A stretch of DNA of 64,000 bases from Amoebophrya sp. A120 (GCA_905178155.1 CAJINV010000001.1:419643-483642); one strand, 5' to 3'; shown: positions 18,501-53,220, counted from the first letter of the stretch. Notes: a model not told the origin generated them from the letters alone. Translations and numbers: made by a program.

Positions 18501-21500
18501 TTCTGTTGTCCTTCAAAGACCTGCAGAAGATCGGCCGCAGGAGGTGACGCCGGCAATAGTTGTTTCTCGTCCGTTTCAAACAGTTGCAGGCCCAGGCTCA
18601 CGCGCGAGCATGCGGACTTGGACAATTTCCGGGTCTCGCAGTTCTCGCCTTCGGATGCAAGCTCTTTGTTCTTAGCGGGGAGTAGCAAGAACCCCTTGGC
18701 CTTGCTCTTGCTCGCGGCCTTCGAACTTCTCTCGCTGGCCGCCGACCCCATTGCTTTTGCTTCTGCGAGTGGTCTGGGCTTCTCCAGCTCCGCCGTCCCT
18801 TTTTCGATGTCGAACGTCTCGATTGCTATGCCCCTTGCAAGTATCGCTTCGGCCGCTCTTCTCTCATGGTGTGGTGTCCCGCACGATTGCTGCAGTTCCT
18901 TGTCGAAATCCTCGGCGGCGACAAGAGTAGCAGCTTTACTTCCTGGGCCCTTCAGTCTTGGCGATCCGAGCATTTCATTGGCGTTCGAGAAGCTCAGCGC
19001 GTCCATAATGTCTGCACCTCCTACCTTCTCGACTATCCCGAGAAAAAAACTGTCTCTTTGCAGCGTTTACACTACAAGTTTGTTACAAACGGCAAAGAAA
19101 ACTTGTTTTACGCGTGCTTCCCAAGCGAAAATATGTCACTTAAGACCCAAAAAAAGTCTTGCATGTGGTCTAGCAGGACGTATGCGTCAGTGTCTGTGCT
19201 GCATCCTATGCATCGCAAGTTTACAGTGATGAAACAGTTTTTTCGTCCGATATCAACCGGGACCACTGCGTACCGATTCTTCTTGTTCCCCAAACCAATG
19301 AGCACGTTTTTCCACTTCGTCAGGCGGTCTTGCGCTGTTACGCCCAGGAAGCGTCTCTGCTGCGCGGGCGTCTTTGCTGAGATGCAGGCAAGACAGTGCG
19401 TGACGAGATGTAGCATGTTGATCTGCGACGGGTTTTCATCGTTGGAGCGAAAGACGTCGGCGGTGCGCACCGCATCGGATAATGCTGGCACATTGCTGCC
19501 ACCAGGCGGCGGCCTGTACAAGATGTTGCTAAAAAGCAGCAGCGCTTCGGGGTGCTTGCCTCCTTCTGGTGCCAGGATCGGCGCTTTCGGGTCGGCTCTC
19601 ATCACACGCGCGAACCGTTGCAGGTATTTCCCAATCTGATGTCGTGTTTGCAAGTTTAGTAGTGAATCCGTGATGTTGAAATAGATAATGATGCAAAATG
19701 AAAAAAACCTATTGGCTGCGGATCAGTTAGGCGCACTCATGCATGCGGACACCTACAAGAGAATCGGAAGAACAAGCACAAACAATCACTGCAAGTGAGA
19801 TGACTAGATCTAGACCCACTACGGTGGCATTTAGATTTAGAAAACAAGTACACACTAACGTTAGTGCGCACCAGCGGCAAAATAAATTAATACCAAATTG
19901 ATAAGTACCTGCTTTCCAGAGTGGGGGCTGGCACACTCCATGTCGCAGAAGAAAGCCATGTTGGCGTGAAACGTATCCACACCAAGCTTCAACATGTCGC
20001 AAGTGCAGAGGGCGTAAATGCCCTGCCCTTCGAGGGGACGGCGCTCGAACCGTGCGATCTTCTCCCCTCGTTCGGTAGTGCTGCAATCGTCGCGCGAATG
20101 CATCTTGTCCAGTTGAAGGGCCTCGCTCTTACCGAAGTCGTACTCCTTTCGTACCTTCTCGTACGCTTTCTCCTTGATTACTTTGCGGAACACCTGCCCG
20201 AAAATTTCTTGTGCCTCCGGCCCGGTCATGTCGTCAACGCTGATACTCTCCGACTCGTCCTCTGAGCTGCTCGTAGCGCTTTTACAAAATATGATGATGT
20301 TCCAGCATCCTTTGTACAGAGGGGTATTATCGAAGCACGCACGCGCCATCTTGGTAAAGTGCTGTCTTATCCGATCGAGCTTCGCTGCTCTTTTTATTTC
20401 CGCGTCCTTTCCCTTTGCCTTTGGATGCGCCTTTTTGCAAAAGGCTCGGTAATCTTTCAGTGCCTCGTCTTGACGGCTTGCCGCGCTGCCGGACAACATA
20501 TCACGAAGCACTTTCTCCATGGCCGGCCCGCTTTTGTTATCGTTTTCCGCAACGACTAGAGCAGTCTTAAGCTGGGCTCGCAGTTTCTTCACCGCGTGCC
20601 ACCCGAGCAATGACTCGCCAAAAAGGTTTGCCGCCTGCTGATAACAAGTTTCTTCTGCCGCGTTCATTTCCAAAGCGAGCTCGCCGACGCCGGCGGACGG
20701 CTCAAAACGCACCAGCGGATGGACATTACGCAGGCATTGCCACTCGATGCCATCACTCGCGGTGATTTCGTAGGCCAACGGGCCGAAGTGGGGACTTGCT
20801 TCGCCCACACCGTCGGCAAGAACCATTGGGATTTCTCCCTCGTTGTGAATCGTTCCGGTGTAAAACTCCCACAAGGTGCTGGCGTTGATTGGGTCGCTTG
20901 GGTTTTGGTTGTTGTCGGCGAAGATAGTTCGCGCGCGCTGGTCTGTGGTGAGATGCGCCTCGTCGAACACAACTCTAGCCCACTTATCGCCGACATCGGC
21001 CGCAATCTTACGCAGTTCGCCGAACGAGTCTAGTGTCGTCACGATGAGCTTTCTTCTTGTAACGCCGGTTACCCCCTGCTCTTTCCGCCAGTTGCTATAC
21101 TCTTTCTTCTGATCCTTACCATTCAAATGGGTGACTCGGCTGGCTGTCGCCCGTGCTTTGGCATCTGTGCCATTCATGCCCAAGGAGCAAAAAACGAAAG
21201 CGTCGTACTTTTCCGCAAGTTTTCCACTTCCTGTTCCTCCCCCAGCAGTACCAAAAGCAATCTTCTTGCACACGTAATTCGTCACAAAGCTATCCACGAG
21301 TCTCAAGGTCGGCAGCACGACGACGCTCGCTTTGTCGTTAAATGGAGGGGGTCGAGAAGCGGAGGAAGAAGAAGGCGGGGGACAGAGTAAGGTAGTGAGT
21401 CCGAATTTTTCAATTGTTTGCTGATCGATGTCTGTATCAGTGTACGCGTCCAGCAAAATGCGCGCACTAAATATCGAGGTCTTACCCAGACCGCAAAAAA

Positions 21501-22811
21501 TATTCAGCAGCGCTCTACCGCCTTGTGAGAGGCACGCCCCGCTCGCAGCGAGTGCACATCCCTGATATTCTCGTAGTCGTATGCCCGCCGCCTGAAATAC
21601 TGGGTGCGGCGGCACCCAATCCCGGGCCATTTGATGGCGGGGCAGGTCGTGGTGCAGAATCTCTTCACCCATCATGGGTGAAGATGTTCCAAATTCAGGC
21701 TGGTCATCTCTCCAGATGTCCATCGAGTCAGAGAAGGGATTTCCTTCCGGCTGTGGTGGACATGGCTCGACGCTGCCTTGTGCGCTCCCCTCCTCGACCT
21801 GTGGCCCGAAAGACGAACGACCTGCGCCTCGGTCTTTACCTCGGTCGTTCTCGCTGCTGGCACCTTTTAGTAATTCAACGCTGTCCGCCACTGGTCCGCC
21901 ACTGTCGTCCATCAGATTATTTTTGTTGAAGGATTATCAACTGCAGAAAGTGTGTGGGTTTGGACGAATGCCAGGTTTCTCATGCATGTTTTGCATAACC
22001 CATGATGCCTGTAATGCATGATGTTCCAAGAGCCTTGTGATGCATATGCCGCATGGGAAGCTCCCACACCGCGTCGCACCAACTGAACCCGTTTTGCTGG
22101 TCATGCAATACATTTCCTTTTTTTTTTTTAAATCCGAATTCAGCATGTCAAAATCCAACTTTCGAGAGGACACATTTTTGCAGTTGATACGGAGGAGCTT
22201 CGCGGCATCGCAGGCTTCATGTCCACCAGAAACAGGTTTGCCCCCCCGTCGTCTTTGTAATCGGACAGACCCAGACTTCCCTTGTTGTTCTGGTCGAGAA
22301 ACACGCGCTCCCTTTTCGCTGCGCCAGATGTGGCTCCGATGTCACACGGGGGCGCTACTCGCGCTAGTCGTGGGGACTGCAGGCGCGAAGTGATCTTCGG
22401 CGATTCATGTGCCGCGTCCTTGGTCGTCAAGCTGTAGGGCGCAGGCAGGTTGAGCGTCGAAGCAGGTGTCGCGGCATCATCTTCTCCTACTGTCCCCTTT
22501 ACACCTTTCGCCACTTGCTCCTCGATCGCACCGGGGGACTCCGTCTTGGAAATTGATTTACTCGAGTTAGAGGACGCGCCGTTCCTCTGTTGTAATTCCG
22601 CAACGTGGTCCGTGGACTCCTGCGGCCTTCCCTTCATCACGGCCAACGAGGAGGCTCCAGCTGCAGCGGCAGGAGTTCTCGCCACGGGGGCCCTCAGCTC
22701 TCCTCGTACTTCCCCAACGGTCCACCCATTCCTCCTGCGCACTTCGCCGCGCACTTCGCCCACGGTCCAGAGATCCGCTGGCTGTGGCCGCACGAACCGC
22801 CCGAAATTCAT
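15521..22811 (-). CDS. Superfamily-2 (ResIII/DEAH-like) helicase with a C-terminal helicase-associated (HA)-like domain, about 2200 aa
   Basis: LREYQ (Q motif), IFCGLGKT (I), VVLPTLRLV (Ia), VVFDEAH (II), YTGT (III), IIIFC (IV), LKLGVDT (V), QRFARVMR (VI-like, after GT-AG intron 19636-19908). HA-like WKLRHEECEKFRKQY...LLQWEILQ...DKLEALPGWSW. Introner 21935-22189 joins the 5' ORF. The junction near 19030-19224 is inferred, and its exact acceptor is uncertain. Confidence 0.7.
21935..22189. mobile_element. Introner family B (TIR TATCAANTGYAAAAATGTCTGGGTCTGGAAG), degenerate
   Basis: TIRs tatcaactgca.../...tgcagttgata; imperfect TSD AGGAT/CGGAG; removing 260 nt fuses ORF 22140..22826 in frame to 19861..21912. 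Confidence 0.85.
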
Positions 22812-23439
22812 TACTTTTGTCAGCAAGTTCAGCGTGAGTCTTTCTAGGTCTTTCTAGTTTTCAGAAGAGGTAGTTATTGAAGTCCTTACTTGTCTTTTTC
22901 CACCAGGGGTTTTTCTTGAAGAGGGGTTTTTCTTGCAGTAGCGCTAGGGAAAAAAGGCGTGCTTTGACGAGAACGGAACAAATTTCCTGCAGCGCCGAGA
23001 ACGTAAGGGATCCTGCAGCTCGTACGGTCTTTCTTTTTCCCGAAGACCAAGAATAACACAATCACGAAATGCAAACATAGCCACGGTAAAACGCCAACAC
23101 TCAATCAAATACCAGAAGATCATCACATCTCCGAAACAAACTAGCCGTAGCAACGAATACAAGGAGTCGAAGAACGAAGCTACCTTCAATTCCGTCACAC
23201 GTCAGGAGAAACAAGGAAAAACAAGACAGGATCGATGATATGATCGCACAAAAGAGATCGCGGTCGCCACCTGACGGGAAAAAAATAGGACAAACGCACG
23301 ACAATATCGCGACCAGTTCGTCTTTGACTTTTGTGAACTGCACTGCGAGACGCCAGGTCATACTTTGCCTGAGTCTTCAACTTCGTGGCTGACATCCGAA
23401 TCTCTACTCTTGGAAATGAAGCACATCCAAAAGATTTAC

Positions 23440-26400
23440 CTATTTGCTCTTGCGATCTTCATCATCGCGACATTCGTAAGTGTAAGTGTATCTACCATGA
23501 TCTGTCGCCCACTCCTGCGTGTAGCGAATACGCGATATTTTGTCTCGATGGCTTTCCCCAGTCACCACAATGCTCCTCCCAGAGTCCTTCGTTGAAAAGC
23601 GCCCGCGGAAATCTTTCAACGTGTCTGCGGAGAACGTGCGGAGCTTCTCTTCGCCGAGCACGATTATTGGAGCGCGAAGTGTTCGGTCGTGGTTGCAGGT
23701 TACTTCCGCAAAAATCTGACTCTGCGCACACTTCATTGCATGGAGGCGACGGTTATCCAACGAGAACAACTGCAAGCCCACCTGCTGCGATCTTAAAACC
23801 TCAGGTTGCAGCCACGGCTCCGGATTGCCCGCACCAATCGAGACCCATCCGTGATCCACCTCGAGCACCCTTACCGCCGGAATTTCAAACACCGAAATGC
23901 GGCCCGCACAAATTTCAACGGCTAGGTTTGCCGGGGCTCCTTGATTGACATCACTAAACGTAGGCGAGATCGTCTTCTGCGAGAACCAGAGCTGCGACAC
24001 TCGTCGTGTTGTGTATTGCAGCATGTTTTCCGGCTCGGGCGCTTCGCCTCCTTGCCCTCGCGAAAGAGCGTAGCCGTCTTCCTCGTCCGTCTCGTGCCGC
24101 GATCGGGCTCGCACGAGGGATGCGAGGCGACACAAGTTCCCAAATGCCAGCTCAAACGGGGCACGCCGGAGCTTGCGTGCTTTTAGAGTATTTTGGTTTC
24201 GTGTCGCCTGCTCGCTAGCTTCGTCCTCAAACTTTTTCTCGATGTCAAAAGATTCATCAGCCTCTATATCATCACCCAGGCTCTGACTTAATTGCTCCAA
24301 CTGCAGCTCGCCAAATGTCCTTTCTGCATTTTTCGACTTCGGCTTTCCTTTCGCGCTTGCTTTTCTGTTGTGTGTTGCTGTCAATTTCTTCAGCAGTGCT
24401 TCTTCCTCGAAGTCAAGCTTTCCGAGAAATTTCGACCACGAAAAAAAGGATGGCTTCTTTTTCACTTGCCCCTTCTCGTTTTTCTTGACTTCTCCAGCGT
24501 TTCTTTTTCCCGCTTTCTTGTTTTTTGGCTTCTTCTTGATGTTGTTCATCGGTGGATTATCGTCCGCGAGAAGGTCGTCTTCTTCATCGATGATTTCTGA
24601 ATCCGACGAGACGGCCTGCGCTTCTTGCACACCTCCGTCTTGATCACTCTTTTCAGTCTCTGCTTCCGCCTCTATTTTCTCGGCCTCGGAGTAGGTGTGC
24701 TCCATCAAAATGGAGGACGCGTACAGCAGCAGGGCAGTCCGCAGCTTGTTATCGAACGAATGAACTCCATCTGCGGCCTTGTTGACGTTCCCGAGAAACG
24801 CCTGTCGAAGCTCCGGGAGAGTTTGTCCGTTCCACTTTGTCCACTGTGCTGCATCCTCCGACGGCAAACACTTCGGCCTCAGCTTCAAATACTCGCTTAC
24901 CGTATCCTTTGCAATTTCTGGAAGTTTCTTCGCTGCTGCCTCAAGGTGCTTCTTGGCACAGCGCGTAAGCTCTTCATGGTCCGGAGGTAATTCCTCACTA
25001 TCCTCGCCTTCGATGTCCCTCTCCGGGCCGTGCTGCGCAAAGCTGAACGCTGAGGCCAAGGCCTTCAAACTCATGCTCCGGCTCACCAACGGAGGAACAG
25101 CAATGCTCGCCCGGCTGTCTTCTTTATGCCGCTCCTTTTGGTCCGTCAGTGCCTTCAGCTGGTCGCGCGGCAGTCCACAGAAGTCCTCAAGGTCTTTTGC
25201 CTGCGCGGAAGAAAATACATCGAGAAATTTGAACTCCTTCGCGCGCTTCAAACGTTTCCGGAGTTCCGCCTGCACATCGCGTCCAGCACGCAGTTTATTT
25301 GGAGACAGGTCCTTGCCGCCATTGTTCTTACCACCGCCGCCCTCGGCGTTGTCTTCTGTGTACTTCGGCAGCAGATTGAGAATGTCGACCCCGTCCTTCT
25401 CAGCGTTCGCCAGTTTGTGCCCCAGCTCTGCGAGCTCCGCCGTTTTGGGGTGGTTCAGGCCTAGTTCTCTCGCAGCTGTCTTGTGCACTGCAAACATGTA
25501 AGAGTCTGGCTGGTTGCAAATTGTCATGCAGCTATGTCTGGATGGTGCAAAAATCTGTGATGTTGCGTGATTGCCAAATAAAAGTAGTCGGCCAAGGCTC
25601 GAGGCAGTTTTTCATGCGGCAGAGGGATGACAGAGATCTCAAAGAATCTCTCAACATGCCAGGCCTTTTATGCGAGACCTCATAGATCATGGAAAACGAA
25701 AAGCCACAACATGACACGCGTTGCATCATTCCAGACCCGGACATCTCTTCACTTGATATGTCTGGTACTTCAACGTAATCGCGCTCACGCCGTACTTTCC
25801 CGGAAACAGTTTTTGCCGGAGAAAAGGCCGCGAGAACAGGTCGAGGCACCGTCTCCAAGCTCGCATCTCGTCGCCTGAGTACTCGGCAGGGGTAGTCGTG
25901 GTGAATACATCCGATATCAGGACTTCGCTCCCAGCGAAGCTCTCAAATTTAGTTTCCTGAGCAGGTCCACCTCCCGCGGGTAGTTGTAGAGCAGCTTCGT
26001 CACAAACTACGACGTCCGCTTCTTCCTGTTCTACCACGTCACGCATCTCGATATCGGTTTGCTCAAAGTCCACTTTGCGAAGACCAGGCTCATGCGCATT
26101 TTCATCGGCTTCGAATAAGTTTTGTTCTTGATCGGACGCCGCGCCCCCTAGGTCAGCATCTTGCTGCGCCTCTCCTTCAAACACGTCTTCGGGCTCCGGC
26201 TCCTCTGCTTCGTCATCGGATGCGTGCTCGGAGAGGCACTCCGCGGCAGCCACGTCCGCGTCCTCCACGAAAATTCCGGAACCGGACGCCTCGGGAAACT
26301 TGCTGTCTGGCATGGCGCTGGTCACCAAGGAGTTCCAACACACCCAAAACTTGTCCCCGTCAAAGTCTCCGTGGCTGCCCTCGATGCTCCCGCACACCAA

Positions 26401-28949
26401 GACGTTCTCGCACGCCATGGCGGCCCGGACCGTTTCCGCACGCTCGGCGATGGCGTGTCGCCCGAACAGCATGTTGCAAGCCTCGTAGCAGGGCATCTTC
26501 ATCGCCAGGAGCTTCTGCCCCGGTCGCAGAAACTTTCCCCCAAAGGACAGAACGAACTCGCCGGGCTTCAGGGTTTGCGTCAGATCCGGCTGGACCACGA
26601 AGTACGCCGACTCAGCGCAGGCGAAGTGCTGCTTCTTTACAATCGTGCGCAGCTCGGCCGCTAGGGTTTTGTGGAAAAGCTCGGCAACATACGGCGTGTC
26701 CAGCTGCAAGCCGCTGGCGAGCATATACTGCATCTTTGCCATCGGCGCGCCCGTCCCTAAGAGTTCCGCAGCCCCAGTGTCAGTGAAGACAAAGCTAGTC
26801 TTCTGCCGCCCAAAATCGTCGAGCTCGCAGTCTTTGAAGATCCTCTGAATGATGTTCCGGACCGTTGCGTGGGCCAGCTTTTGAAAGAGCCGCTTTGCTC
26901 TCCTCGCCCCCCCGATGTGGTGTTCGAGGATCAATATGCTCTCGCTGTTCAGGCTTGCTGGCCGTGGGGCGCGTTCGTCGGTACGGCCGTCGACGGTGAC
27001 TTCCAGGTCGATCTTGTCCCCCTCCTTGCGGCCATACATCTCCGGCCACTTATTTGTTGACTTCGACATCCATTTCACCATGGATTTGCGGAGGACAATG
27101 CGCCGACCAGTGAGGTTGTGGCTGACCACGAGAATCCCGCGGGCCGGCCCGATGCGAACCTGTATCAAATGTAAAAATGTCTGGGTCTGGAAGGTTGCAA
27201 CTTGTGATGCTGTCTTTGGAAGGTAAAAAAAATCTGTATTGCATGACCAGCAAGAGGAGTTCAATTTGTGCTACGCGGGGTGGGCGTTTCTCATGCGGAA
27301 TACGCCTCAGAAGGCTCTTTAAAAATCTGTGATGCTAGGTCATGCATTACAGGCATCACGGGTCATGCAAAATATGGATGACAAACCTGGCAATCTTCCA
27401 GACCCAGACATTTTTACACTTGATAACCTGGACGCACTGCAGATTCCCTTCTATCTTCGCAGTGTTGACATCGGCATTTTTAGCTTCACCAGAGCCGCTC
27501 GAAGGAACTAGAGACGTGTCGTCAGCCGCATCCAGCGCGTTGTCCTGCACTGCGTCCGCATCACGACTCGAAGGAGCAAGAAGATATTCTCTCGGCTCGG
27601 CCAACCCGACGCCATTCCCCGTTGAAAATGTATCCCCTTCGCTTTCGAGCAACTTCTCGTCATTGTCGTGTAGTGTCATCTGTGCCGGAAGCTCCTTGCC
27701 GCTCCGATTTCTCCAATCGCTTGCACTTTCAGTTTTCCGCTTCTTCAAGGCACTGCCGCCGTCACCACAGGACTCTGCTTCTTGCTGCTGCGCCGCTTCC
27801 GCATCGCCCTGAAGCGTTTCGCGTTCGTCCTGATTGGGAGCCATAAGGCGTTCCTGCACCTCCCACATCAACTCGGGAGAAATTTCCCCGTTGCCGTCGG
27901 TTGCACAAGGTCCCTCGACGTCTTCCCTGATGTCGATTTCACTCGAGTCGAGCTGTGCTACCTTGGTCGTAGGGGAAAAGAGCAGCTGGAACCGCGACGC
28001 CCACTTTCCCAGGTGCATCGCTTGAACTTCGTGGTCTGACAAGGGCAGGTGCCTCCGCAGGACCTCTTCGACCGAGATGCCGTCGGCGCGGATATAGTGG
28101 AATAAAAAGTTGCCGCCAACTTTGTGGTGAGAAACCAGTTTGTTGTAAAAACGGCCCTGGCGGTCCTGTACCACAGCTGGCGGTGGAACACCGTCTTCCA
28201 CAAAGACCTCGATGTGGGTTGGTCCGGACAAAATCCGCCGCGCTGCCATCCGGCGAAATCGGCAATCACCTCCGATATACAAGAAAAAACGGTGTGAGTG
28301 TGAGTCTGGGATGCAGAAAATGCAAAATACCAGATACGCTTGTCATGCCAGACAACCACGAGAACCTCTTGTCATCATATGTGTTCTCACGTCTTTCTAC
28401 GGGTTGTGGTTTTCTCTGTCATGCAGAACGAATTTGTCATGCTGTCAACCCAAGAAAGTTGCCCTCACCTACGTTTTTTCCTGGATATCCAAGGTCGAAG
28501 TAATACTCTTTGCGGGGGCGCCGATCAAGGACGTTAATGGTTCCTTCTCCCCGGTCATCAAGCACTTCGGTGACCATGGTGTCTTCGAGCACCTTCTTCA
28601 TGGCAGCGCGGTTTCCGATGATTTGCTTGTTAAACCGCACCACCCGTTGTAAGTCACTGAACCACGTGCGCTCCCAGTTTCCCTTCGTGGGCATTCGGCC
28701 TATCAGACGGCAATAATCGGCAGAAGTCCCTTTCTTTGCCTTTTTCACTAGCTCCCCGTTCTGCAGCTGCTGCTGCTTTTCTATCCACTTGGGGCATAGC
28801 TCTGCGTCGCCTGTGAGAATGTCTTTTACGGCACATTTGTTGTACCTGCCGTCCTTGAGGTTCTTCAAAAGATCCAATATGTTGGATCTGACTTTCAACT
28901 CCTGGAGCTCCATTTCGGATACCTCCATCTTCGCTCTCGGCAACGACAT
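23440..28949 (-). CDS. Eukaryotic RNA-dependent RNA polymerase (RDR/QDE-1 family), DFDGD catalytic loop
   Basis: TDGNGEIS, QVRIGPARGIL, LRKSMVKW, LNSESILILE, PDLTQTLKPGE, GSHGDFDGDKFWVCWN (DFDGD at 26353-67), GLNHPKTAELAEL...EKDG. Three introners removed in frame. Confidence 0.9.
25482..25758. mobile_element. Introner family B (degenerate left TIR) in RdRP
   Basis: TSD TGTCT (25477-81 and 25759-63); removal gives LKYQT|AARELG. Confidence 0.85.
27163..27425. mobile_element. Introner family B in RdRP
   Basis: Near-perfect 31-bp TIRs; TSD ACCTG (sense CAGGT); removal gives LQCVQ|VRIGP. Confidence 0.95.
28276..28487. mobile_element. Introner family C (TIR TATNCARGAAAAAA..GTG) in RdRP
   Basis: TSD TCCGA/TCCAA; removal gives YFDLG|GDCRF. 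Confidence 0.9.
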
Positions 28950-29574: not shown

Positions 29575-30790
29575 TGCAGTCGAGCTGCAATCTTGTGATT
29601 GCAATATTCATTGGCTCGTCTTCGCACCACAAACAACATAGAGAAACGAGTTTGGTCAACCATAATCCATACATCTGGTTTTTCTTTTTCGCAGTGAAGA
29701 CGAACTTACTTGTTGGAGTATTGAAACTTGATGCGCCCACAAATACCGCTTTGAAGTCTTTAGCGCCATTCGCTTTATGCGCCATCTTTGTACCTCTCAG
29801 TAGAGCGAAACTCAATGGGCTTTCCCTTCTTCATCCCCACCCGCCAAGGGCCGCAATTGCCACCTCTTCCGCAATGTGGCGGGCGGGCTGTTGACGTCGT
29901 GGCTTTACTCTACCCAAGGTGCTACTTCTGCCAACTGATTGTTCCCGCAAATGCTCAACATAGCCGTAGGGAAGTTCGTGCTCGGATGCCGAAGTCTCCT
30001 CCACAGCCGTAAGCAGTGAATTCGTTTGCGCGCCGGCCCACCACGAGCTAGTATCGGATCTACCGAATAGCTCGGATCTCCCGAACCTGGCCGGGGTTCT
30101 CATTTGCTTCACCTCCTCCCGTCCTGGATCCAGACCCTCGTCAATATCGAATGAAAACTTGTTCCCCGTTCTTTCCTCGCCTGGTGTCGGGCTGCTGCTG
30201 GTCTCGAAATGCACATACAGGCCACGGTCCAAAGTAGGCTGCAGGTCGTGTGCAAAGAGGCTGCTGCTCAACGGCAACATCGGAGGTCGTACTGCTGCCA
30301 TTTTTATCAGCGACCCCGAGCTGAGACTGCTCGTGCCGGACAAAGCGGCGGTTGACGAACAAAGCGTGTCATTGTCGAAACCCCGCTGCCTGATCTCTTC
30401 CTTCAGCTGATGTAATTCTCGCACCGACACGACTTCGCCGCTACTTTCGTCCGAAGCTTTTTTTAGAGCTCCTTCGTCTACTGCTTTAGCTCGAGATACT
30501 CGCAAAGAACCCGCAGAGGCCGAGGACAATCGTCGACAAAGTTTGTTAACCTGCCCTGGCTTCTTGGCGTTTCCTATCTGCATGTTCGACAGACGCGCCA
30601 CAAGCGGCTCCTCGAGGTTCAGCGAGTCGAACGTGGGAGCACCGGGCGGCCGCTCCTGTCGCTGCTCTGCGAGAAGCGCTCGCTCCCGGGGTCGAATGTC
30701 CAGGCGGCGTCCGAATGGAAGCAGTGAGGCTCCTGTTGTAAAAGCGAGAGGTAGTGGATTACTAGTTCCTTGTACTCAAAAGCTCAGATT
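29575..30790 (+). repeat. Direct repeat copy 2 (matches about 13425-14735)
   Basis: Shared coding and flanking sequence. This copy lacks the family I element and has a short in-frame duplication (GRSELFGRSD). Confidence 0.9.
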
Positions 30791-31611: not shown

Positions 31612-34600
31612 CTACAGTACCTTTGTGTATAGGAAAGTTGACACGAAGTACCGCAGGCAAAACGCTAACAGACTGAACATCGCCTGCGCTATTAGCAAGA
31701 CGATTACCAGAGTCTCTTCGTTCATGGGCCCGAAAACATACAAAACAAAATTAATTAGAGTCAGATTACTAATCCTGTATTCCTTCTTTTGTTCCGAGGC
31801 AACTAGTGCCTGTGATGTACTTGTCCTCCCCATAGCAGCCCCTTCCGCTTCTGAAAGAGACGACCTTGTCGTTGGCCTCTGCTTCAGACTCGTGGTTGAA
31901 TAGTTCGACGCTCGACTGATCCTCGCTGCGCTGTCCTTGCTCGCCTGCTGCACAAAATGAATGTCCTCGTCGTCGTTGTCGTTCGCGTTGAAATCATCTT
32001 CTTGCTGCGACGACGAAGCAGCAGCGTCGTAGCTGTTACCGTTATCAGAAGCTGCGCTACCTTCTAGTGCAACCGTTATTTCCTCAATCTTGCAGAGCCG
32101 GAAGGTTTTGTAGACGGAAAACACTAGTCGCCCGGCGACGGAAAGCTCTTCTACCCGCACGGTGGCGAAACTATTCACGCTCACGTTCTTCTCCGGGTCA
32201 AAACCGGGCAGGCGGTGCCGCGGGCACTCGACGAGCCGGAAGAGTTGGGGGAGGCCGTAGACGAAATTCAATATTTGTGGGAGCAGGAACAGCAGCAGAG
32301 TTTTGCTGTAGTGCCCAAAAATCCCAGCGACTGCAAGGGTCATGCCCGCGAAGTAGCAGAAGGTATCGCCGACAAAGACGCGGCTTGGATACCTGGTTAT
32401 AAAAAAATATTTTTGGGGTTTACAAAAACTTTTTTGAAATCAATGACTTTCCGCTGCTGCGTGCACGTTCATGTTCATCATCATCAATTACGATGAAGCT
32501 ATAATCGCGCCCAGACGAAGAAGTCAACAAGAACAACAATCCGTTCCGCATGACTATAAATACCAGTTGAATTTCAGCAAACCGAGCGTGACCGCGACGA
32601 AGGGTAAGAGGATGTACAGGCTGAACAGATGTCGCTCCCGGCCCAACGCAAATTCCTCAGGTAGCCTCGCGAGTTGGATCAGATTGTTCAAGATTAGGGA
32701 AATCGCGATGATCAGGCTCTGTCCCGCCTCCAACCCGTTGACCCCCGCGTAGATGTTGATGGCATTCACACTGAAAATCGTGATCATGCACAGAAACAGG
32801 TAAAAAAACGGCCCCAGGTCAATGATGTCGAAGGAGAAGATCCACCGCAGCGGCAACGGGAGGAGGACCGATGTTGTGCCCAGCGTCGCGAAGTAGACCT
32901 TTTTAGAATGTAGTTCTGAATGCAGTCAACATACTAGAGCGTTGGTTCTCTAGCACTCCGAAATCCACAGGACCACAGGGATGAGAACAGATGCCACGGT
33001 ATTAGGAGACACGTCGTGGATAACAGTGTAGCAAGAACAGCGCATCACTACGTTAACTCATACCAGCAACAGTGGCAAACTGGCTAGAGTTATCAAATGT
33101 AAAAATGTCTGGGTCTGGAAGAATGCATGTTTGTCATGCTTTTCTGGCATGACTCTTAAATCTGTCACGCACGTTACCCAAGAGCTCAATTTTTCTGTGA
33201 TGCAGGAACGCAGTTTGTCATGCAGCATAGGCAACACCTAGAAGCTCAGAAACTTGTCATGCTGAGCCAGCATTTGTGGCCTCATCATGAGACGCCACCC
33301 AACATCACAAGTTTCCAGACCCAGACACTTTTACATTTGATAAGAGTTGGTAAAAGCAGCTTGTCTCGCCACCTCAAATTCAGCACGTTGTCTACGAACC
33401 CGAAGAATATCAAATGTAAAAATGTCTGGGTCTGGAAGATTGCCAGGTTTGTCATGCACATTTTGCATGACTCCTGATGTCTGTGATGCATGCCCTAGCA
33501 TCACAGATTTTGTGAGGGCTTCCTCATGCCTATACCGCATGACAAATGCTCTTTCCGTGTAGCAAAACTTGGACTTTCTTTGCTGCTCATGCAATACAGA
33601 TTTTTTTAGAATCCAAAATCAGCATGACAAGTTGGATTCTTCCAGACCCAGACATTTTTACAGTTGATAAAGAAGCTCATACTGCAAATCGACAATATTG
33701 CGGCCAAGAATTGCACCATGCGCGAGAAGGAGTCGACATCTTGCTGCAGTTTCTGCGCAATGATCTGCGCTGAGCCAATGGACGACGCTGTAGTTCCCGG
33801 GATGAAACTACTGCCACTGAAGAGGTCTGCGCCAACATTATTTCCCTGGTCTCCTCCCGCTGCGATCAAGTTGTTTGGCGATGCTTTTTCTAATTCTTGC
33901 TCAATTAACCCCTCCTGGCCGACTTGGAAGAAGGAGAAAAGCCAGCGTGTGAGGGAGTTTGTGTAGTAGTCACCCGCACTTATTGCGTAGTTGCTCGTCC
34001 CGGCCGCCCCGTTAGTGAAACCATTCGTGGTCCCACTCGTCGGGTTCGAAGATGAAAATGCGGATAAAAACGCGAAGGGGAGAAAAAAGGTCACGCAGAA
34101 GCAGTACACCACTCCTGGGATCACCCCCACCGCTTCGGGCACTTTGATCCCCTGCACCGGTCGGATCAATGACCCGTCCGCATTCCTCGCTGTCGTCCTC
34201 TTTGACAAATCGATCCCGAACAGGCCGGCGTCGACGAATTTGGGCGCAAAGGCCGGTATGATTCGGACGACGAGGGAGTAGCCGAGCAGGGAGAGGAGAA
34301 TGCAGGCGAAAAACGGGAGATTCAGCACCGTATTACAATGAAAAATGCCCCCACCCCCGAACTTGGGAGAATTTGTATTGCAAACCTTTCCAAATGAAAC
34401 ACTCACCCTCTTGCATCTATCAGCATCAGAGGTTTCCAATCGTGAACAGCAAGAATGTAGTGTATTGCAAAAGACCCCAGCAAGAGCGGCGCTTGTCATG
34501 CAAGCGATGCGATACACGCCTAGACCCTGCATCAGAAAGATTCATACTCCTTTCATGCATGACAAAAAGTCTTCATTTGGACACTTCGCATCACAAATTT

Positions 34601-34738
34601 TTACAATTTAAGGGGTGGGGGGCATTTTTCACTGTAATACACCGTTTTCAATAACCTCTGTTTGCTCTCCGTGTCAGCTAAGACGAGTGGCACTACACCT
34701 GCGACTGCGGTCAGTGCGGCAGTGGTCACGCCCAGCAT
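31612..34738 (-). CDS. DPAGT1: UDP-GlcNAc:dolichyl-phosphate GlcNAc-1-phosphotransferase (ALG7/DPAGT1)
   Basis: [113 protein letters not shown] introns 32393-32563 and 32899-33063, plus three introners. Confidence 0.96.
33091..33342. mobile_element. Introner family B in DPAGT1
   Basis: TIRs tatcaaatgtaaaa.tgtctgggtctggaa; TSD AGAGT. Confidence 0.95.
33408..33669. mobile_element. Introner family B in DPAGT1
   Basis: TSD AAGAA; removal gives SMSF|FGFVD. Confidence 0.95.
34331..34639. mobile_element. Introner family E (TIR TATTACARTGAAAAATGCCCCCACCC) in DPAGT1
   Basis: TSD CACCG; interior highly similar to 61239-61536. Confidence 0.95.
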
Positions 34739-36305: not shown

Positions 36306-39295
36306 CTAAGAGGTGCCACTCCCCGTCGCTGCTTTCTCCGCCTCTAGTCGCGCTACCGCTGCCTCTATGCAAGAAAAAAACTGTGTAAGTGTAAATTTGT
36401 GTTGCAGAACATGCAAAAGAGTTGCGCCTGTCATGCCAGCCAGCCATGAAGTCCTCTTTTCATGTGTGTTTTCCCTTACAAGCCACGCATGACAGATTTT
36501 CTCTGTCATGTAGAGCAAATTTGTGATGCTGTTTCTCAAAGAAAGTTACACTTACACACTTTTTTTCCTGGATAGCCTCCGTGATTTGCATTCTTTGGTC
36601 CATCGTTTTCACCGTTTGCACCAGCATCTCCATTTGCGTAGTCATCTGTTGGATGCTGTCCATGAGCTTTTTCTCCCGCTCCGTTTGTGCGACGTCAGAA
36701 GCTGCGACGATGGGCGTCGCTGCGGCGCGTTGGGCTGCAGAATTTTTGGTAAGAATGCAGTTAACTTCTGTCAGTATCTATGTATCACATCGACCAAACA
36801 AGCAATGAATATGTAGTGAATCATGTCCATCTATCATGAGCCCTTTACTTACTGCAAAAAAAACACAACTGCATCCAGAAACCACAAATTACCAGCCGAC
36901 GAAGGGACGATTGGTGTGGTCGCAGTCGTTGGCGTTTCGCCTTTCCTGCTACTTCCAGATCCGGAACTCTGTGCCGCCGCGCCAGTTTCCACCCCTGATT
37001 TTCTCTTCTCCCTCATCTTCTTTGTGGGGGAAACACTGTGCGTTATCTCACTGTTAACTTCGTTCGCAAACTGAGTCACCACTTTTTTTCCTCCCGTGCC
37101 TGTGACATTGGGCGTTGATGACCTGCCCGGACCGCCTTGCTGCGTCGAGGAGCTAGTTCTTGAGGGGACCTTGGTGAAGTTGTGCTGCGGTTGCGAGGGT
37201 GTGGTTGTGCCCGCCGATCTCGGAGCATTGTAGAGATAGGTCCTTGCCGCACCGACCCGACTGCCCGCCGCTCCGTCGCCCGCTTGGGGCGGCTGGTCGT
37301 AGAGCTGTTCGTCCGGCCCGGCCTTCCAGACAAAAACTTTTTGGTCTGCAGAACCGGAGACGAGGTGCTGCCCTTGCGGAGAGAACTTCACACTGTGCAC
37401 CGCGTCCTCGTGACCGGCGAGCGTGTACAGGAGCCGACCTTGCATGTAAAAGTAGTTGGGTCAAGTATGATTTTCGCTTACGTTAAGAAATTCCCAAAGC
37501 CAAAACGTAGTTTACTCACCCACTTCTAAATATGTGAATTCATGCATGAGACTGAGCGACCGTTTCCGGTCCTCGCGAACTAGATCTAGAAACAACAGAG
37601 CTCCATTTTAAAAACACCTTCCTGCAAGTCCCAGAGCTTCACGGTCCTGTCGGTGGAACTGGAAGCGAGGAAGTTTTGACTGCTATTGAAATCCAGATCG
37701 AGCACGGGGCCGGCGTGCGCTATCCCAGAGAAAAGAGCAGGCAGGGCAGCTTTGTAATGCAAAAATGACTTAACAGAAAAATCTGTCATGGGCGACCCCA
37801 TATCATGGCGTTTAGGACATGCAATGCAGATTTTTCTGTCTATTTATCTTTGCATTACAAAACTGCCCTGCCTGTTTCTTTCTGAGGGATATGCGCGTCG
37901 TAGTGCTGAATGAGCCGCTTTCTCCTCAGATCCCAGATTTTAATGGTGCGGTCATCACTGCCGCTCGCGATGCAGGTCCCGTCCGGGTGGAAAAGTGACC
38001 GGTTTACGCGCTCCACATGTTCCTGCATCTTCATTACGCAGCCGCGATCTGACAGTGGGAGTGATAGGTCGTGTGATGATGAAGTAGTACTAGCTACATA
38101 CGGAAAAGCTGCATCGCCGTTCCCAACTGCGGCGCCATCACTTTTAAACAATAGGCTGATCAATAAACTCCTGCTACAATACCCGAAGACGCGGTGCAAC
38201 ATCAAAAGGGAAAACGCAACTACCCTTCCCTCCCCCCGCACTGTGCGCTCCGGCGCCGGCTACTCGCAAGTCCCAAATCCGCACGGTCTTGTCGTCGCCG
38301 CACGTTGTGACGAGATTGGCATCCTCCAAAGAGAATCTTACACTCCTCACCCAGTGAGTGTGCCCCTCTAACGACATCAGGAATTTGGAACTCGTCGGGG
38401 TGACTTGCCAAATTTTCACGATTTTGTCGTCCGACGCCGTGGCGAGAAGCGAGTTGTCTGGAGACATATCCTGAGGAAAAACGTACCCACACCAGAGTCA
38501 GGATGAGGATTTTGCAACACAAACCTAGGAGTTTTGTGAGTCACGCATGACAAGTTGCACTATGCAGTTTAGTGCAGGTTAGCAAGTGCAGCCGCATCAC
38601 AGATTCATCTGCTCATCCACCTGTTCACAGCATCACAAATTCCAAAACACGACTGGAAATGGCTCTCATGGGGACGCGCATTACAAGTCTTCCTGTCTTT
38701 GCAAATCTGCATTACAACTCTGGTGTGGGTACGTTTTTACTCAGGATAAGACAGGTGGCAACTTCTCACAACTCCGGTGTGGGCCTTGATCACGTGGGAC
38801 GGTGTGCCTGTTGTTTGGTTTTCAAAACTTCTATTTTTGCAGAAAGGAAAATATTACAGCAGAGTGAGAAAGACGCAGTCTGCCATACGTGTTTGCAGCG
38901 CTGAGGGAAAGCTGCATGTTGTTCAAGTCATACTCTCGAGTACCTTTTGCGTTGTTCAACCACAATGCCACGGTTTTGTCGGAACTCGCCGACGCGAAGA
39001 AGCTCCCGTCCTTCGCCACGGACACATCGTTCACATCCGCCTTGTGCCCCTCAAACTTGAACGGCCTCAGCTGCTGTTTGAAGTGCCAGACGTACAGCCT
39101 TCCGTCGTGCGAGCCGGAGACCAGTTGGTGCATGCAGGGGTGGAAGAACGCCGCGCTTACCGGGGCGGTGTGGCCCTTGAACACGCGAACCAACTCCGGG
39201 GGCTTCATGCCCGCTTTCGTACTGTTGACCGTCCCGGGAGCCGCCGCCACCGACGGCGCGCGACTGCTCGCGTCCAGGGTTACACTTGCCGCCAT
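36306..39295 (-). CDS. POC1: POC1 centriolar protein (WD40 repeats plus C-terminal Poc1 coiled coil)
   Basis: FKGHTAPVS...FEGHKADV, FHPDGTCIASGSDD, LIQHYDAH, DLQEGRLLYTLAGH, C-terminal IQQMTTQMEMLVQTVKTMDQRMQITE. GT-AG introns about 38808-38943, 38049-38223, 37439-37617, 36735-36892, plus three introners. Confidence 0.93.
36366..36574. mobile_element. Introner family C in POC1
   Basis: TSD GCCTC (sense GAGGC); removal gives ITEA|AVARLE. Confidence 0.93.
37721..37891. mobile_element. Introner family H (TIR TATCCCNNAGAAA..CAGGCAGGGCAG.TTTGTAATGCAAA) in POC1
   Basis: About 43-bp TIRs; TSD TGCGC; removal gives YDAH|AGPV. Confidence 0.93.
38467..38748. mobile_element. Introner family D (TIR TATCCTGAGNAAAAACGTNCCCACNCCAGAGT) in POC1
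   Basis: TSD AGACA; removal gives SCHLS|PDNSLL. Confidence 0.95.
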
Positions 39296-45520: not shown

Positions 45521-48500
45521 TCATGAAAAAGCCTCTTTCGCTTCCGGCGAGATTTTTCTTGTCGGACTTGTATCCGGCGTGTCCGGCCTTCCCGGTCCCT
45601 GCCCACCGCCGGGGGTGCTGGGTGTTCGGTTGTGGTACAGATCCGGCGTTCTCACATTATTGTTGCCTTTCGACGTCGTGCTACTTCCGTGTTGTACGGT
45701 TTGCGACCAGAAGCTGTCCGGGTCTTCCTCGGCGTTGTTCTCTAAATCCCAATCAACCACGTTTCCTATCGTCACCTCCGTTTGGTTTATCTGCTCGGAG
45801 TAGGCCATCTGGTGGGACCGGGACGACGGCGCCCAGAGATACATCATGGTGAGCAGCACCAGTAAGAATAAACAGTGCGGGATCATGTCCGTGAAAATCC
45901 TATGCAATGCAAAAATGTCTGGGTCTGGGAGATTCCGATATTTGTCATGTAGTTTTTTCAAGCTCCCCCACGTCTGGAATGCAGGGCCTAGCATCACAGG
46001 TTGTGCAGCTCCTTGGTGATGCGTATTCTGCATGAGAAATGCCCTCTCCAGCATGGCCAGAAGTGGGCACCTTTTGCACGTTCTGCATCACAGATCTTTG
46101 TAGGATCGGAAACACGCATCACAAGTTCGCATGCTTCCAGACCCAGACATATTTGCATTTGATAAATCCACAAAGACGCCCATTTCTGCCGGGACAACTG
46201 CTTCTCGATTGCGGTGGAGTAGCTGTACAGCTGGTAGAGAAACGAGATCCCGAGAATCACGACGGACAGGACCAAAACTTTCCAAAACTGCAGATACAGC
46301 TCCAATTTCGCGGACTGCTTGGTCTGCTCCAGATTGACCAGCAAGGAGGACAAAGACACAAAAATCCAGTACAGTATCCCGCCGTGCAAAAACGCGACCG
46401 GGATCAAGCAAAGCAGCACGAAGGAGAGCGGTAACACCATCGAGTGTCTAACCGACAAAACAACTTCCCTAACCCCGTCGAGCAACAGGTACAAAAACGT
46501 CAGCAGTTGTATTCGGAAGATGGTGTTCCTCGGCAGCGTTGGCTGCGTCACGCCCCAGCCCAGACTGGCGAGGAGCACGAGAACCTGGGAGAAGATGTTC
46601 TTTGCCACCGTCGCGAGGATGCAGGTGATGAAGAGCACGTAGGGGCGGATTCCCGACTCGTTCCATTCGCTGTAAAAGATGTACCACAGACTGCACTCCA
46701 CCAACCCGGAGAGGATCACGCCGCCGATGCAATATGCATTCCAAAATGTCTGGGTCTGGAAGCTTTCCAGGTTTCTCATGCATATTTTGCATGACTCAGG
46801 ATGTCTGTAAAAATGCATGATCTAGCATTACATATTTTTAGAGGCCTTCCTGATGCCTATCCCGCATGACAAATGCCCTCCGCGCGTAGCACAAACTGGG
46901 CTCCTCTTCTTGCTGGTCATGCAATACAGATTTTTTTAGCATCCAAAGTTAGCATGACAAGTTGCAACCTTCCAGATCTTCCAGACATTTTTGCAATCCA
47001 TATGCAACCGTGGATGGCGAAAAGTTGCTTCCACCAGAAGAGGCAGCGGAACAACCAGTAGAGCACGAGATATTGAAGCGTCAGGATTGAAATCGACCAA
47101 GACAAAGTTGCAATAATTTATCATGCATAAATTGCAAGGCATGGAGTGCCTCTCTTGCAGGGATGTCAAGCGATGCCGACTGTCAGCCTGTTTGGGGTCT
47201 GCGATAGAGCTGCTAAAGTAGCATGACAAAAGACGCCTTCTGTCCCTGAACAGCATGACAAACTGGATGTAGACGGTGTCGAAATTTGTCATGCACTGCT
47301 TGGAAATTGGGCTTCCAGCTGGTATCGATTTTATGCATTACAAGTTGTTTTACCTTTGTCGATTTCAATCCTGACACTCCCATACAAGAACCACGTAGGT
47401 CAATGTCAGCCAACCGTACAGAGGCCACTTGTGGTAGCTGTGATTTTTATTTCATTGTGAACCATACATGGGTACAATTTTTGCATCGGCTGTACTGGTG
47501 GATCACCTCTTCACAGGCATCTAATACTAATCAACTTCAACGTCAGGATCAGGAGGAAAAATCGCAATAGCAGTACTCGACGCCCGGAAGGTATCCGAAG
47601 GGGTTGCGAACGACAATATTGCCCGAAATCTTGATCTTCTCTTCCTTCCCACAATTGCTGTAGATCAGCAGGTATACACCTGAGAATTTTTTATTCGATT
47701 CTGGTTCAGCGATGCAGCAGTTGTTCGAGATACTGTTCATCCTCAACCTCATGCTCATCGTGGAGGCCACTACAAAATAATTTTGTAGTGGCCTCAACTT
47801 TAAATTGAGAACCAAGTGGCTGATCAGAACGATGGCAACACTACATCATACCGCTCTGCGTCATGTTTCGTCTGATGTCCTGCGGAGGTTGCAACGTCGG
47901 GGAGACAACATCAATCGATAGCGCGGTTGGCGGCCTCGTTTTGCCCAGCGGCATGTATCCTGTGGAAAAACGTCCCCACCCCATAAGTAACCAAGATGGG
48001 AAATCTGCTACACAAATCCACAAGTTTTGGCTGTCGAGCATGACAAGATCTGGGACAAATTGACTACACTACTATCTTATCCATATCCTGATTCTAGCAT
48101 GACAAAATCCGAGATAGCATCAGAACATGGCTCTCATGTTGGGGCTGCGCATGAGAGACATTTTAGGCTTGCGGATTTGCATGACAACTATGGGGCGGAG
48201 ACGTTTTTACTCAGAATAGCAGGTTTTGGTATTTCAACTTATCCTCCTTGCAGTTCTCATCGTTGGGAAAGCAGCAAAAGTCGGTCTTGTTATCAAGTGC
48301 AAATATGTCGGGGTCTGGAAGATTGCTGAGGTTTGTGATGCTGTGTCTGCTTGACACAGAAGGTGTGCCATGCAAGGACTAGCATCACAGGTTTTGAGAC
48401 GGTCTCCCAATGCCTAATTCGCATGACAAACGCCTTCTTTCGGCGACAGGAAAAGGAGCTGAGCTCCCTTTGCTGTCCAAGCATGACAGATTTTTGTGTG

Positions 48501-49023
48501 GTCTAAGTATGCATCACAAGTTCGCAGCCTTCCAGACCCAGACACTTTTGCATTCGATACTTGTCCACATGGTGCAAAAAGTCACGATACGTGATCAGCG
48601 TTAGCTGCACACCCTTGTAATGCTCCAATTCCTGATAGAGTGTAAGGTGATTTTTCAAGTAGATATTACATTGCTGCTAAGTAATAGCTAATAGCCAGTA
48701 GCAAGCTGGTACATCACCTGCCCGACCTTTCTGTATGTAGGAAACAAAAAAGCCGGATGTTGCGCATGCGGATAATGGTGCACAATCAGGAGGCTCAATA
48801 CTGGTTTCGACTCCGTTCTTCTGAGCTCGTGAAAAATGACGAAGGCCTTCGACTGCGGACGTATTTTCGCAGGCGCGTCTTGCTCCGAAAAAACGTAAAA
48901 CGCTTGCAGCACGTGGAGCGATCGCGCACTGGGTACGGCTGCATTCTCGAAGGGATAGATCTGCGCGTGGGTCAAGGGTAGAAGGCTGAGGAGCGACGTC
49001 AAAAGCGACGTCAAAGTGACCAT
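45521..49023 (-). CDS. Lung seven-transmembrane receptor (GOST; TMEM87/GPR107/PTM1-like) protein
   Basis: Signal peptide MVTLTSLLTSLLSLLPLTHA; GVYLLIYSNC, RNPFGYLPG, WKQLFAIHGCIGGVILSGLVEC, LLASLGWGVTQP, WIFVSLS..LEQTKQSAKLELY, MYLWAPS. GT-AG introns 48632-48801, 47680-47851, 47438-47576, plus five introners. Confidence 0.88.
45901..46164. mobile_element. Introner family B
   Basis: TSD AATCC; removal gives SLWI|FTDM. Confidence 0.93.
46733..47002. mobile_element. Introner family B
   Basis: TSD TGCAA; removal gives HGC|IGGV. Confidence 0.93.
47071..47384. mobile_element. Introner family F (TIR TATNGNAGYGTCAGGATTGAAATCGAC)
   Basis: TSD CGAGA/CAAGA; removal gives YVVL|VLYWL. Confidence 0.92.
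47956..48218. mobile_element. Introner family D
   Basis: TSD GCATG/GCAGG; frame restored (YQNL|PLGK). Confidence 0.9.
48291..48559. mobile_element. Introner family B
   Basis: TSD CTTGT; removal gives HVDK|TDFCC. Confidence 0.93.
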
Positions 49024-52897: not shown

Positions 52898-53220
52898 TAT
52901 GAAAAGGAAAAACCCCCCCTCCCCATATCAAAAAGGAAATCTGTGATCCTGGATTTGCGTACACAGTTCAGATTTGTATTGCAGGAAGGTATTGCGGCCA
53001 GATCCCCAGGCTAGGTAGGGGCGTATGGGTCTAGTTGCTCAGCATTGCAAACGGCTGACCTTTAGGCCCAACAGCATGGCAAATCGCTTCCATAATGGGC
53101 CGGAAGCTTCTGCCCTTGTCTTCTTGCAAGAGAAATGTGATTTGTGACCTCAAATCAGCAAAACAAATTTTCGGAAAGATACCTTTTCGATATGGGGAGG
53201 GGGGATTTTTCCTCTCAATA
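52898..53220. mobile_element. Family A element in a gene-poor region
   Basis: Family A TIRs; TSD TCATG (52893-97 and 53221-25); no convincing host gene. Confidence 0.92.

Follow-up and report, generated by a model that had tools for sequence, protein, structure and literature searches.

The window, the whole 64,000-nucleotide stretch of Amoebophrya sp. A120 DNA analysed here, carries genes typed by Pfam as GCS, RdRP, GPT, WD40, Prp18 and GOST, all of them on the minus strand (from a scan of 33 ORFs). Its GCS protein has its best homolog in Amoebophrya sp. AT5, at 55% identity over 60% of the query. These genes are interrupted by elements of 150–320 bp that have TAT...ATA inverted ends and are flanked by 5-bp direct repeats. 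The terminal inverted repeats (TIRs) of all elements begin with TAT, and most carry a run of A at positions 11–15, which is weaker in families 5, 6, 7 and 12 (families are the clusters of interior sequence defined below). The window's element mask comprises 27 elements from a scan for TIRs and target-site duplications (TSDs), two added by hand through TIR homology, and one cut by the window end. The element that holds the sequences of interest here and its surroundings are laid out below, followed by the other elements of the window, with the strand in brackets where one was assigned.

33408–33669: TIR introner element of family 0a, 262 bp, containing three dyads quoted in an earlier note and splitting the minus-strand GPT/DPAGT1 gene
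33408–33439 (+): left TIR (TAT-N7-A run), 32 nt, 97% complementary
33638–33669 (−): right TIR, inverted-repeat pair with 33408–33439
33403–33407 (+): 5-bp TSD, left copy
33670–33674 (+): 5-bp TSD, right copy
33450–33472: module 1, half-sites 33450–33457 (+) and 33465–33472 (−), 7-nt spacer, centre about 54 bp from the left element end
33482–33505: module 2, half-sites 33482–33489 (+) and 33498–33505 (−), 8-nt spacer, 32.5 bp from module 1
33522–33544: module 3, weak half-site 33522–33529 (+), 7-nt spacer, strong half-site 33537–33544 (−), 39.5 bp from module 2
33591–33598 (−): solo half-site, TGTATTGC variant, 31 bp to the next, from sequence reading and the family map
33622–33629 (−): solo half-site, outermost right module
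33343–33407 (−): 65-nt exon flanked by two elements, DPAGT1 residues 111–131 (E 1e-5)
33675–34330 (−): upstream GPT exon, its first 95 codons similar to DPAGT1 residues 8–85
33091–33342: element, family 0b, in the same GPT gene as the 33408 element
34331–34639: element, family 9, in the same GPT gene as the 33408 element
12481–12802: element, family 4
14199–14351: element, family 1, with an empty paralogous site near 30419
19034–19252: decayed element, family 2-like TIR
21935–22188: element, family 0-type TIR, added by hand
25485–25758: element added by hand, with a family 0-type TIR and a decayed left end
27163–27425: element, family 0a, in the orientation opposite to 33408, minus-strand RdRP gene
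28276–28487: element, family 2-like TIR
36366–36574: element, family 2
37721–37891: element, family 10
38467–38748: element, family 3, strong consensus sites all in one direction
45901–46164: element, family 0a
46733–47002: element, family 0-type TIR
47071–47384: element, family 6
47956–48218: element, family 3
48291–48559: element, family 0a
52898–53220: element, family 4
56319–56540: element, family 5
56891–57143: element, family 0b
59888–60210: element, family 4
60276–60557: element, family 0a
60732–60880: element, family 1
60919–61173: element, family 0-type TIR, singleton interior
61239–61536: element, family 9
61838–62157: element, family 4/8-type TIR
62591–62875: element, family 3
63529–63801: element, family 0-type TIR
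63937–64000: element truncated by the window end

The elements of the window were studied together with a larger sample. A scan of metagenome contigs for the TIR pattern returned 152 loci, 150 of them on JACKZZ01 contigs, from which eight redundant loci and two from other assemblies were removed and four were trimmed; none overlaps the window, and their elements match window elements at up to 97%. An element caller blind to the internal motif described below, applied to 647,929 bases including the window, yielded 383 elements, or 381 after removal of overlaps, as against 0 and 1 calls on shuffled sequence. An exact 5-bp TSD flanks 319 of the 381, and the flanking repeat exceeds 5 bp in none. 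Among viral contigs the TIR pattern had no match, and a tandem pattern matched 53 times, with a TIR plus TSD at none of the 53. Clustering of the element interiors gave 14 multi-copy clusters and 20 singletons, and the largest cluster divides into 0a (120 copies), 0b (52) and eight remaining copies; site maps were drawn on 14 consensuses (0a, 0b and 1–12). Because family 0 copies were collected with the TIR pattern as bait and are over-represented, family weights or a single consensus per family were used for the motif profile and the spacing spectra, and the pooled counts (orientation totals, branch rates) are unweighted. Linkers are similar at z of at least 5 in 5 of 55 family pairs, three more pairs are weakly related, and 47 lie below z 3, so the families are partly related and the 14 site maps are not fully independent.

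The elements themselves are of a known kind. Introners of A120 have inverted repeats that open with TAT, continue with seven looser bases and then have at least three A, and tens of thousands of A120-type introns derive from such elements (Farhat 2021; PMC7789003); family lengths of 148–149, 208–227, 252–261, 273–279 and 304–322 bp are given for A120 in 38 of 58 family rows (Gozashti 2025; PMC12130899). The elements here have the same TIR pattern and similar lengths, bear short direct repeats at their boundaries, and recur in families within genes, and thus match the published A120 introners, with the difference that the repeats published as short direct repeats resolve here to a 5-bp TSD. They also have the features that non-autonomous TIR DNA transposons (MITEs) display, being short, non-coding, flanked by TSDs and present in many copies. 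The family 1 element at 14199 can be compared with an empty paralogous site near 30419, where the gap is 158, that is, 153 + 5, the element and one TSD copy. When an element plus 5 nt is removed in silico, an open frame results in 125 of 282 cases, compared with 36–52 when 3, 4, 6 or 7 nt are removed with it, and from this restoration of frame alone we infer that the elements are excised from mRNA as introns. For the first two elements of the GPT gene the stop count is non-discriminating, as two alternative cuts likewise give 0 stops; the identity of the GPT exons is therefore taken from the DPAGT1 matches of the flanking exons.

Within the element at 33408, the earlier note had described three inverted dyads, at 33451–33471, 33480–33507 and 33524–33542 and about 32–40 bp apart, and they are indeed found there, with centres 32.5 and 39.5 bp apart. 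The window contains 71 exact copies of the half-site TGTSATGC, where 4.68 would be expected (maximum 11 in 100 shuffles); all 71 fall within the 7,608 element bases and none within the remaining 56,392. The spacer is equally particular: ATGC-N7-GCAT is found 18 times in elements and ATGC-N8-GCAT eight times, neither of them outside, and spacers of 5, 6, 9, 10 and 11 nt have no instance inside the window's elements. The full motif is a 12-mer, about RYYTGTVWTGCD, found in all 14 multi-copy clusters at 1.5–6.7 strong sites per copy (at most 0.04 in shuffles), and the exact 8-mer half-site is present in 13 of them. The half-sites thus recur across families as the note had claimed (14 of 14), but the TIRs of these families, which it took to be unrelated, share TAT starts and A-runs, and some linker pairs are related as well.

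The motif is real and under selection. With sites set on half of the copies and scored on the other half, in families with at least six copies, mismatch to consensus is 0.05–0.12 in motif cores, 0.12–0.31 in other interior columns and 0.07–0.21 in TIRs, so that in each of the 11 families the cores are two to four times as conserved as the rest of the interior (p 0.001) and decay more slowly, the outcome on which the earlier note had staked its proposal. The motif is conserved at the level of the TIRs. An artefact of CpG or base composition was ruled out by base-matched comparison, in which invariant motif positions mismatch at 0.034–0.039 and linkers at 0.18–0.22, with non-CpG G/C positions and linker TGC triplets included.

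The geometry of the sites has two levels. At the lower level, the dyad with a spacer of 7 or 8 nt that the earlier note took as the unit is a real one, but one of its halves is usually degenerate and full dyads are a minority: of 1,755 strong sites, 15% (with family weighting) have a partner complementary at six or more of eight positions at the 7- or 8-nt spacer, a figure that is 1% at control spacers, and dyads of two strong sites occur in 5 of 14 families, 5 in all where 1.25 would be expected. The offset computed from non-adjacent opposite pairs alone peaks at 15, equivalent to a 7-nt spacer, and a faint partner half-site is visible in the extended motif profile. The module is two-fold: a half-site, 7 nt and a second half-site, one of the two being degenerate in most cases. 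At the higher level, and absent from the earlier note, the dominant rule is a module spacing of 30–34 bp. Measured between dyad centres, 34 of 58 gaps between adjacent modules are 30–34.5 bp (null mean 6.1, maximum 17), a proportion reproduced in two subsets of seven families (16 of 27 and 17 of 28), and 13 of 14 families have pairs in the same direction at 31–33 bp, which total 24 against a null mean of 2.7 and a null maximum of 10.

The array is also set with respect to the element ends, the end offsets being symmetric in 11 of 14 families against 1.4 by the null. The centres of the first modules cluster at 40–44, 51–55 and 63–66 bp from the element end (about 44, 54 and 65), and their distances from the end are phased at 10.5 bp (R 0.64, p 0.003, the 14 values having been collapsed by hand), with a broad period peak that is best at 11–11.5. 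Phasing between modules at 10.5 bp beyond the 32-bp repeat (gaps of 18–22, 39–43 and 48–55 bp) is borderline (cos 0.24, p 0.058), and with a reduced set of families same-direction pairs fit a period of 16 best. The earlier suggestion that the size classes of the elements reflect the number of modules is borne out by a Spearman correlation of 0.76 over the 14 families, but end offsets and linker lengths also set size; total lengths, on inspection, are not multiples of 10.5.

The timing of selection was read from trees built on two thirds of the linker columns, the motif rate being expressed relative to that of the held-out linkers. Measured in this way, invariant motif positions evolve at 0.08 of the linker rate on internal and 0.34 on terminal branches, with seven of seven families agreeing in direction, which makes motif mutations, relative to linkers, about four times rarer on internal than on terminal branches. 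Simulations under constant constraint gave nearly equal ratios (0.15 vs 0.19 and 0.31 vs 0.36). On the shortest terminal branches the ratio is 0.44 with held-out linker columns; a value of 0.75, inflated by a tree built on the same linker columns, was not used. The terminal-branch rate of the motif, 0.027, is near the decay of the TSD, 0.037 across both copies. Taken together, the branch contrast and this near-equality suggest that copies that have lost sites survive but rarely give rise to lineages, and a constraint that acts mainly on spreading lineages favours a role in mobilisation over one in recruiting the machinery of intron excision.

Motif sites also occur outside recognisable elements, where 188 strong sites were counted against 77 and 88 in shuffles, together with 13 motif pairs at 31–33 bp. 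The scarcity of the motif in GT-AG introns, noted earlier by eye, holds in the window (0 of 44 candidates) but not among all 405 computationally called and noisy candidates from the window and the related contigs, of which 27 contain a strong site against 4.5 expected and 378 contain none. An impression by eye that such orphan sites always lie on the sense strand failed, with 16 sense and 19 antisense sites in GT-AG introns and, in a second tally, 44 sense and 59 antisense. The excess could reflect decayed elements, that is, neutral fossils, or retention by the host.

The earlier note had left it open whether the dyads are DNA sites for a dimeric protein or RNA hairpins that recruit the excision machinery, and the results uphold the former branch and not the latter. 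Hairpins have some appeal: interiors fold beyond shuffles in 13 of 14 families (mean z at or below −1.45), and in the fold of the 33408 element modules 1 and 2 form hairpins beneath the long TIR stem (z −11.2), although inverted repeats are expected to fold regardless of function. Compensatory changes, sought in 55 pairs of five dyads, amount to a single covarying pair in family 2 (A-T 21, T-A 6), and the other 54 have no Watson–Crick excess above 0.06. A good partner strand is missing for 85% of strong sites, the same motif sequence being retained whatever its partner, the median pairing probability of 142 dyads is 0.35, and family 3, with six sites in the same direction, has an unstructured interior (mean z 0.03, four copies). 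Sites on the two strands are also of similar number. Relative to the gene strand, called in concordance with ORFs at 46 of 54 loci, 274 elements contain 656 sense and 580 antisense sites, 20 of them having no sense-strand site at all; 13 of 14 families occur in genes in both orientations (0a at 35:36), as do the two window copies of 0a that lie oppositely in the minus-strand RdRP and GPT genes, and the one bias that would suit an RNA signal, 24:10 in family 0b, has an uncorrected p of 0.024. An RNA hairpin code was therefore rejected on the covariation, orientation and partner-site tests, and we consider it highly improbable. Even less credence can be given to the idea that the motif is a neutral relic of an ancestral internal 32-bp tandem duplication inherited by all families. 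The linker similarity in 5 of 55 pairs and the TAT ends common to all would agree with such descent; yet conservation at motif positions is about five times that of base-matched linkers, and the motif and its spacing persist between families whose linkers are mostly no longer recognisable as related, and on the conservation and branch-rate evidence the idea was rejected.

The lack of covariation, the use of both orientations and the contrast between internal and terminal branches together point to double-stranded DNA sites needed for spread. On sequence evidence, we think it probable that the 12-bp site, arrayed within the elements of all families at intervals of roughly three turns of the DNA helix, is the binding site of the transposase, or of its DNA-binding partner, that would mobilise them all. 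Each module would be bound by a dimeric protein; lying along a single face of the helix and in register with the TAT-N7-AAA end, a number of such dimers would assemble the cut-and-paste complex. Copies that lose sites would remain in genes but produce no further offspring; the TIRs would be free to drift between families, as specificity would reside in the internal array; and removal of the intron would rely on different signals, for example the TIR stem and TSD. As for the enzyme, a scan of 122 out of 155 long ORFs in related contigs totalling about 0.6 Mb turned up no transposase, and no autonomous element was found among seven longer TIR pairs, two of which were examined in full; the text of Farhat 2021 (PMC7789003) likewise reports that no transposase was found in A120 and argues against a general mobilisation by transposase.

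It is conceivable, if rather unlikely, that the protein on the array is instead an abundant DNA-binding or chromatin protein of the host, which would act as a cofactor of spread, for instance by bending DNA or exposing the ends, and would not itself be the transposase. All results at the DNA level fit such a factor equally well, and it would account for a single motif across families with different TIRs and for the transposase not found. A general factor would, however, be expected to have sites elsewhere, and exact matches are absent from the 56,392 non-element bases of the window; the register with the element end better suits an enzyme that cuts there, and comparable arrays in CACTA, pogo and piggyBac elements are described as bound by element-encoded proteins. 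Slightly less likely still is a dual use, in which the array, bound as DNA, would have the further task of marking the element on chromatin for excision from nascent RNA in either orientation, replacing U1 snRNA. Farhat 2021 (PMC7789003) could not detect U1 snRNA in A25 and A120 and saw no clear signature at the splice sites; the elements are indifferent to orientation, motif pairs survive in candidate introns that have no TIRs, the terminal-branch ratio is 0.34 rather than 1, and redundancy would mask the loss of single sites. Against this stand the decay of the invariant positions on terminal branches at about the TSD rate, the lack of a strong site in 378 of the 405 candidate TIR-less introns, and a rough estimate that places the orphan pairs within the neutral decay of old elements. 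In its fullest form, which we regard as a long shot, one protein and one helically phased array would do two jobs, mobilisation and the chromatin marking of the element for removal from the transcript in either orientation; if true, this would be an intron-definition code at the DNA level in a eukaryote in which U1 snRNA is undetected, and the motif pairs found in GT-AG introns without TIRs would be what has been kept of it.

Under the preferred reading as a site for the mobilising protein, the shared motif and its strict geometry link the sampled families, which are likely served by a single mobilising system. The array could serve as bait for that protein and as a signature by which to recognise its autonomous element, and the motif as a fossil marker of old introners that have turned into ordinary-looking introns, so that introner mobilisation and splicing without U1 become directly testable through it. 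No internal motif or spacing rule is described in the text passages and supplement text of Farhat 2021 (PMC7789003) and Gozashti 2025 (PMC12130899), nor is one in the available text of two reviews (PMC11282704, PMC11453091) and of Gozashti 2022 (PMC9860276); the earlier note's belief that the motif had not been described in these elements thus agrees with the literature and supplement texts searched.

Among known systems, the closest in arrangement are the subterminal repeats of the Emigrant MITE and Lemi1 (PMC1636448), of En/Spm with its TNPA protein (PMC2613891), and of piggyBac and piggyBat (PMC11707139), which likewise consist of repeated internal motifs in direct and inverted orientation and are bound cooperatively by an element-encoded protein; piggyBat has three units of a motif plus an imperfect palindrome spaced 44 bp apart, with one CRD dimer per palindrome (PMC11707139). 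The motif here shares with such repeats a conservation above that of the linkers and an ordered spacing from the ends. Unlike them, the A120 array fills the whole 150–320-bp element with a repeat of about 32 bp and is common to 14 families with different TIRs, whereas CACTA motifs are reported to diverge even within one species (PMC2613891). Its motif sequence, ends and TSD differ from those of Emigrant, En/Spm and piggyBat, the likeness residing in how the sequences appear to be arranged, and the array belongs to none of these systems. With IS3EU/GingerRoot and Ginger elements (PMC10045372, PMC6839031) the A120 elements share TA..TA termini, but the TSD of IS3EU/GingerRoot is usually 6 bp as compared to 5 bp here, and we do not assign them to that group. 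A120 family 38, classed as Ginger with a 5-bp TSD, TA/TA termini and ORF homology to Copia/Gypsy-like (LTR-element) sequences (Gozashti 2025; PMC12130899), is a lead to the mobilising enzyme; judging by the TA..TA ends, the 5-bp TSD and family 38, this enzyme may be of the integrase type (Ginger/IS3EU/GingerRoot-like). Finally, the nonconventional introns of Euglena (PMC12501133) are likewise non-GT-AG, with paired ends and a short sequence code; the Euglena code, however, occupies the ends of the intron and has been demonstrated to be required for splicing, whereas the A120 motif is internal, repeated and free of orientation.

A gene segment is duplicated in the window (13630-14695 and 29830-30746, 83-96% alike), and the two duplicates differ by an introner element at 14199-14351, which is present in the first; the second retains the empty site. 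No elements were called in window 1-12400, a stretch that is mostly 54-63% GC. Among the groups clustered by interior sequence, family 0b (e.g., window 33091-33342) is skewed in its orientation relative to gene strand (24:10, p 0.024 uncorrected).

The element ends carry TAT-N4-TG(C/T) in families 0, 1, 3, and 12 (e.g., window 33408-33422), followed by an A-run in families 0, 1, and 3. This end resembles a degenerate half-site on the outer side of the first module, at a distance of about 30, 41, or 51 bp; the modules are built from the internal motif, a 12-bp site with a TGTSATGC core. The resemblance is not general across families. The related metagenome contigs (L-numbered loci) include a longer element:

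L017:505-1608, element of 1,104 bp whose ends are of the family 6 type

It contains a GC-rich insert built of short inverted tandem repeats, and its sole long ORF has no match in Pfam.

Genes identified in the window and the related contigs include:

Window 19864-28342, minus strand, cellular RdRP gene (PF05183) that elements interrupt
L014:2625-6080, C-5 cytosine DNA methylase gene

An ORF downstream of the RdRP gene has a weak ResIII helicase-like match, and the two may together constitute a single RdRP-helicase gene. CpG columns in element linkers are only somewhat more variable (0.29 versus 0.21).

Orphan strong sites, that is, strong motif sites outside recognizable elements, are far scarcer in the window than in its related contigs: counted in DNA outside long ORFs, the window has 1 in 21 kb and the contigs have 109 in 213 kb. 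Regional, strain, or ascertainment differences are candidate causes. In the related contigs, motif pairs 31-35 bp apart also occur in short AT-rich stretches without recognizable terminal inverted repeats (TIRs) or target-site duplications:

L007:2230, TIR-less motif pair
L007:426, TIR-less motif pair
L022:3347-3494, TIR-less motif pair
L027:1784, TIR-less motif pair
L055:2396, TIR-less motif pair
L036:456-566, TIR-less motif pair
L025:15841, TIR-less motif pair

Several of these stretches are candidate GT-AG introns, and they are possibly old introners that have become ordinary introns.
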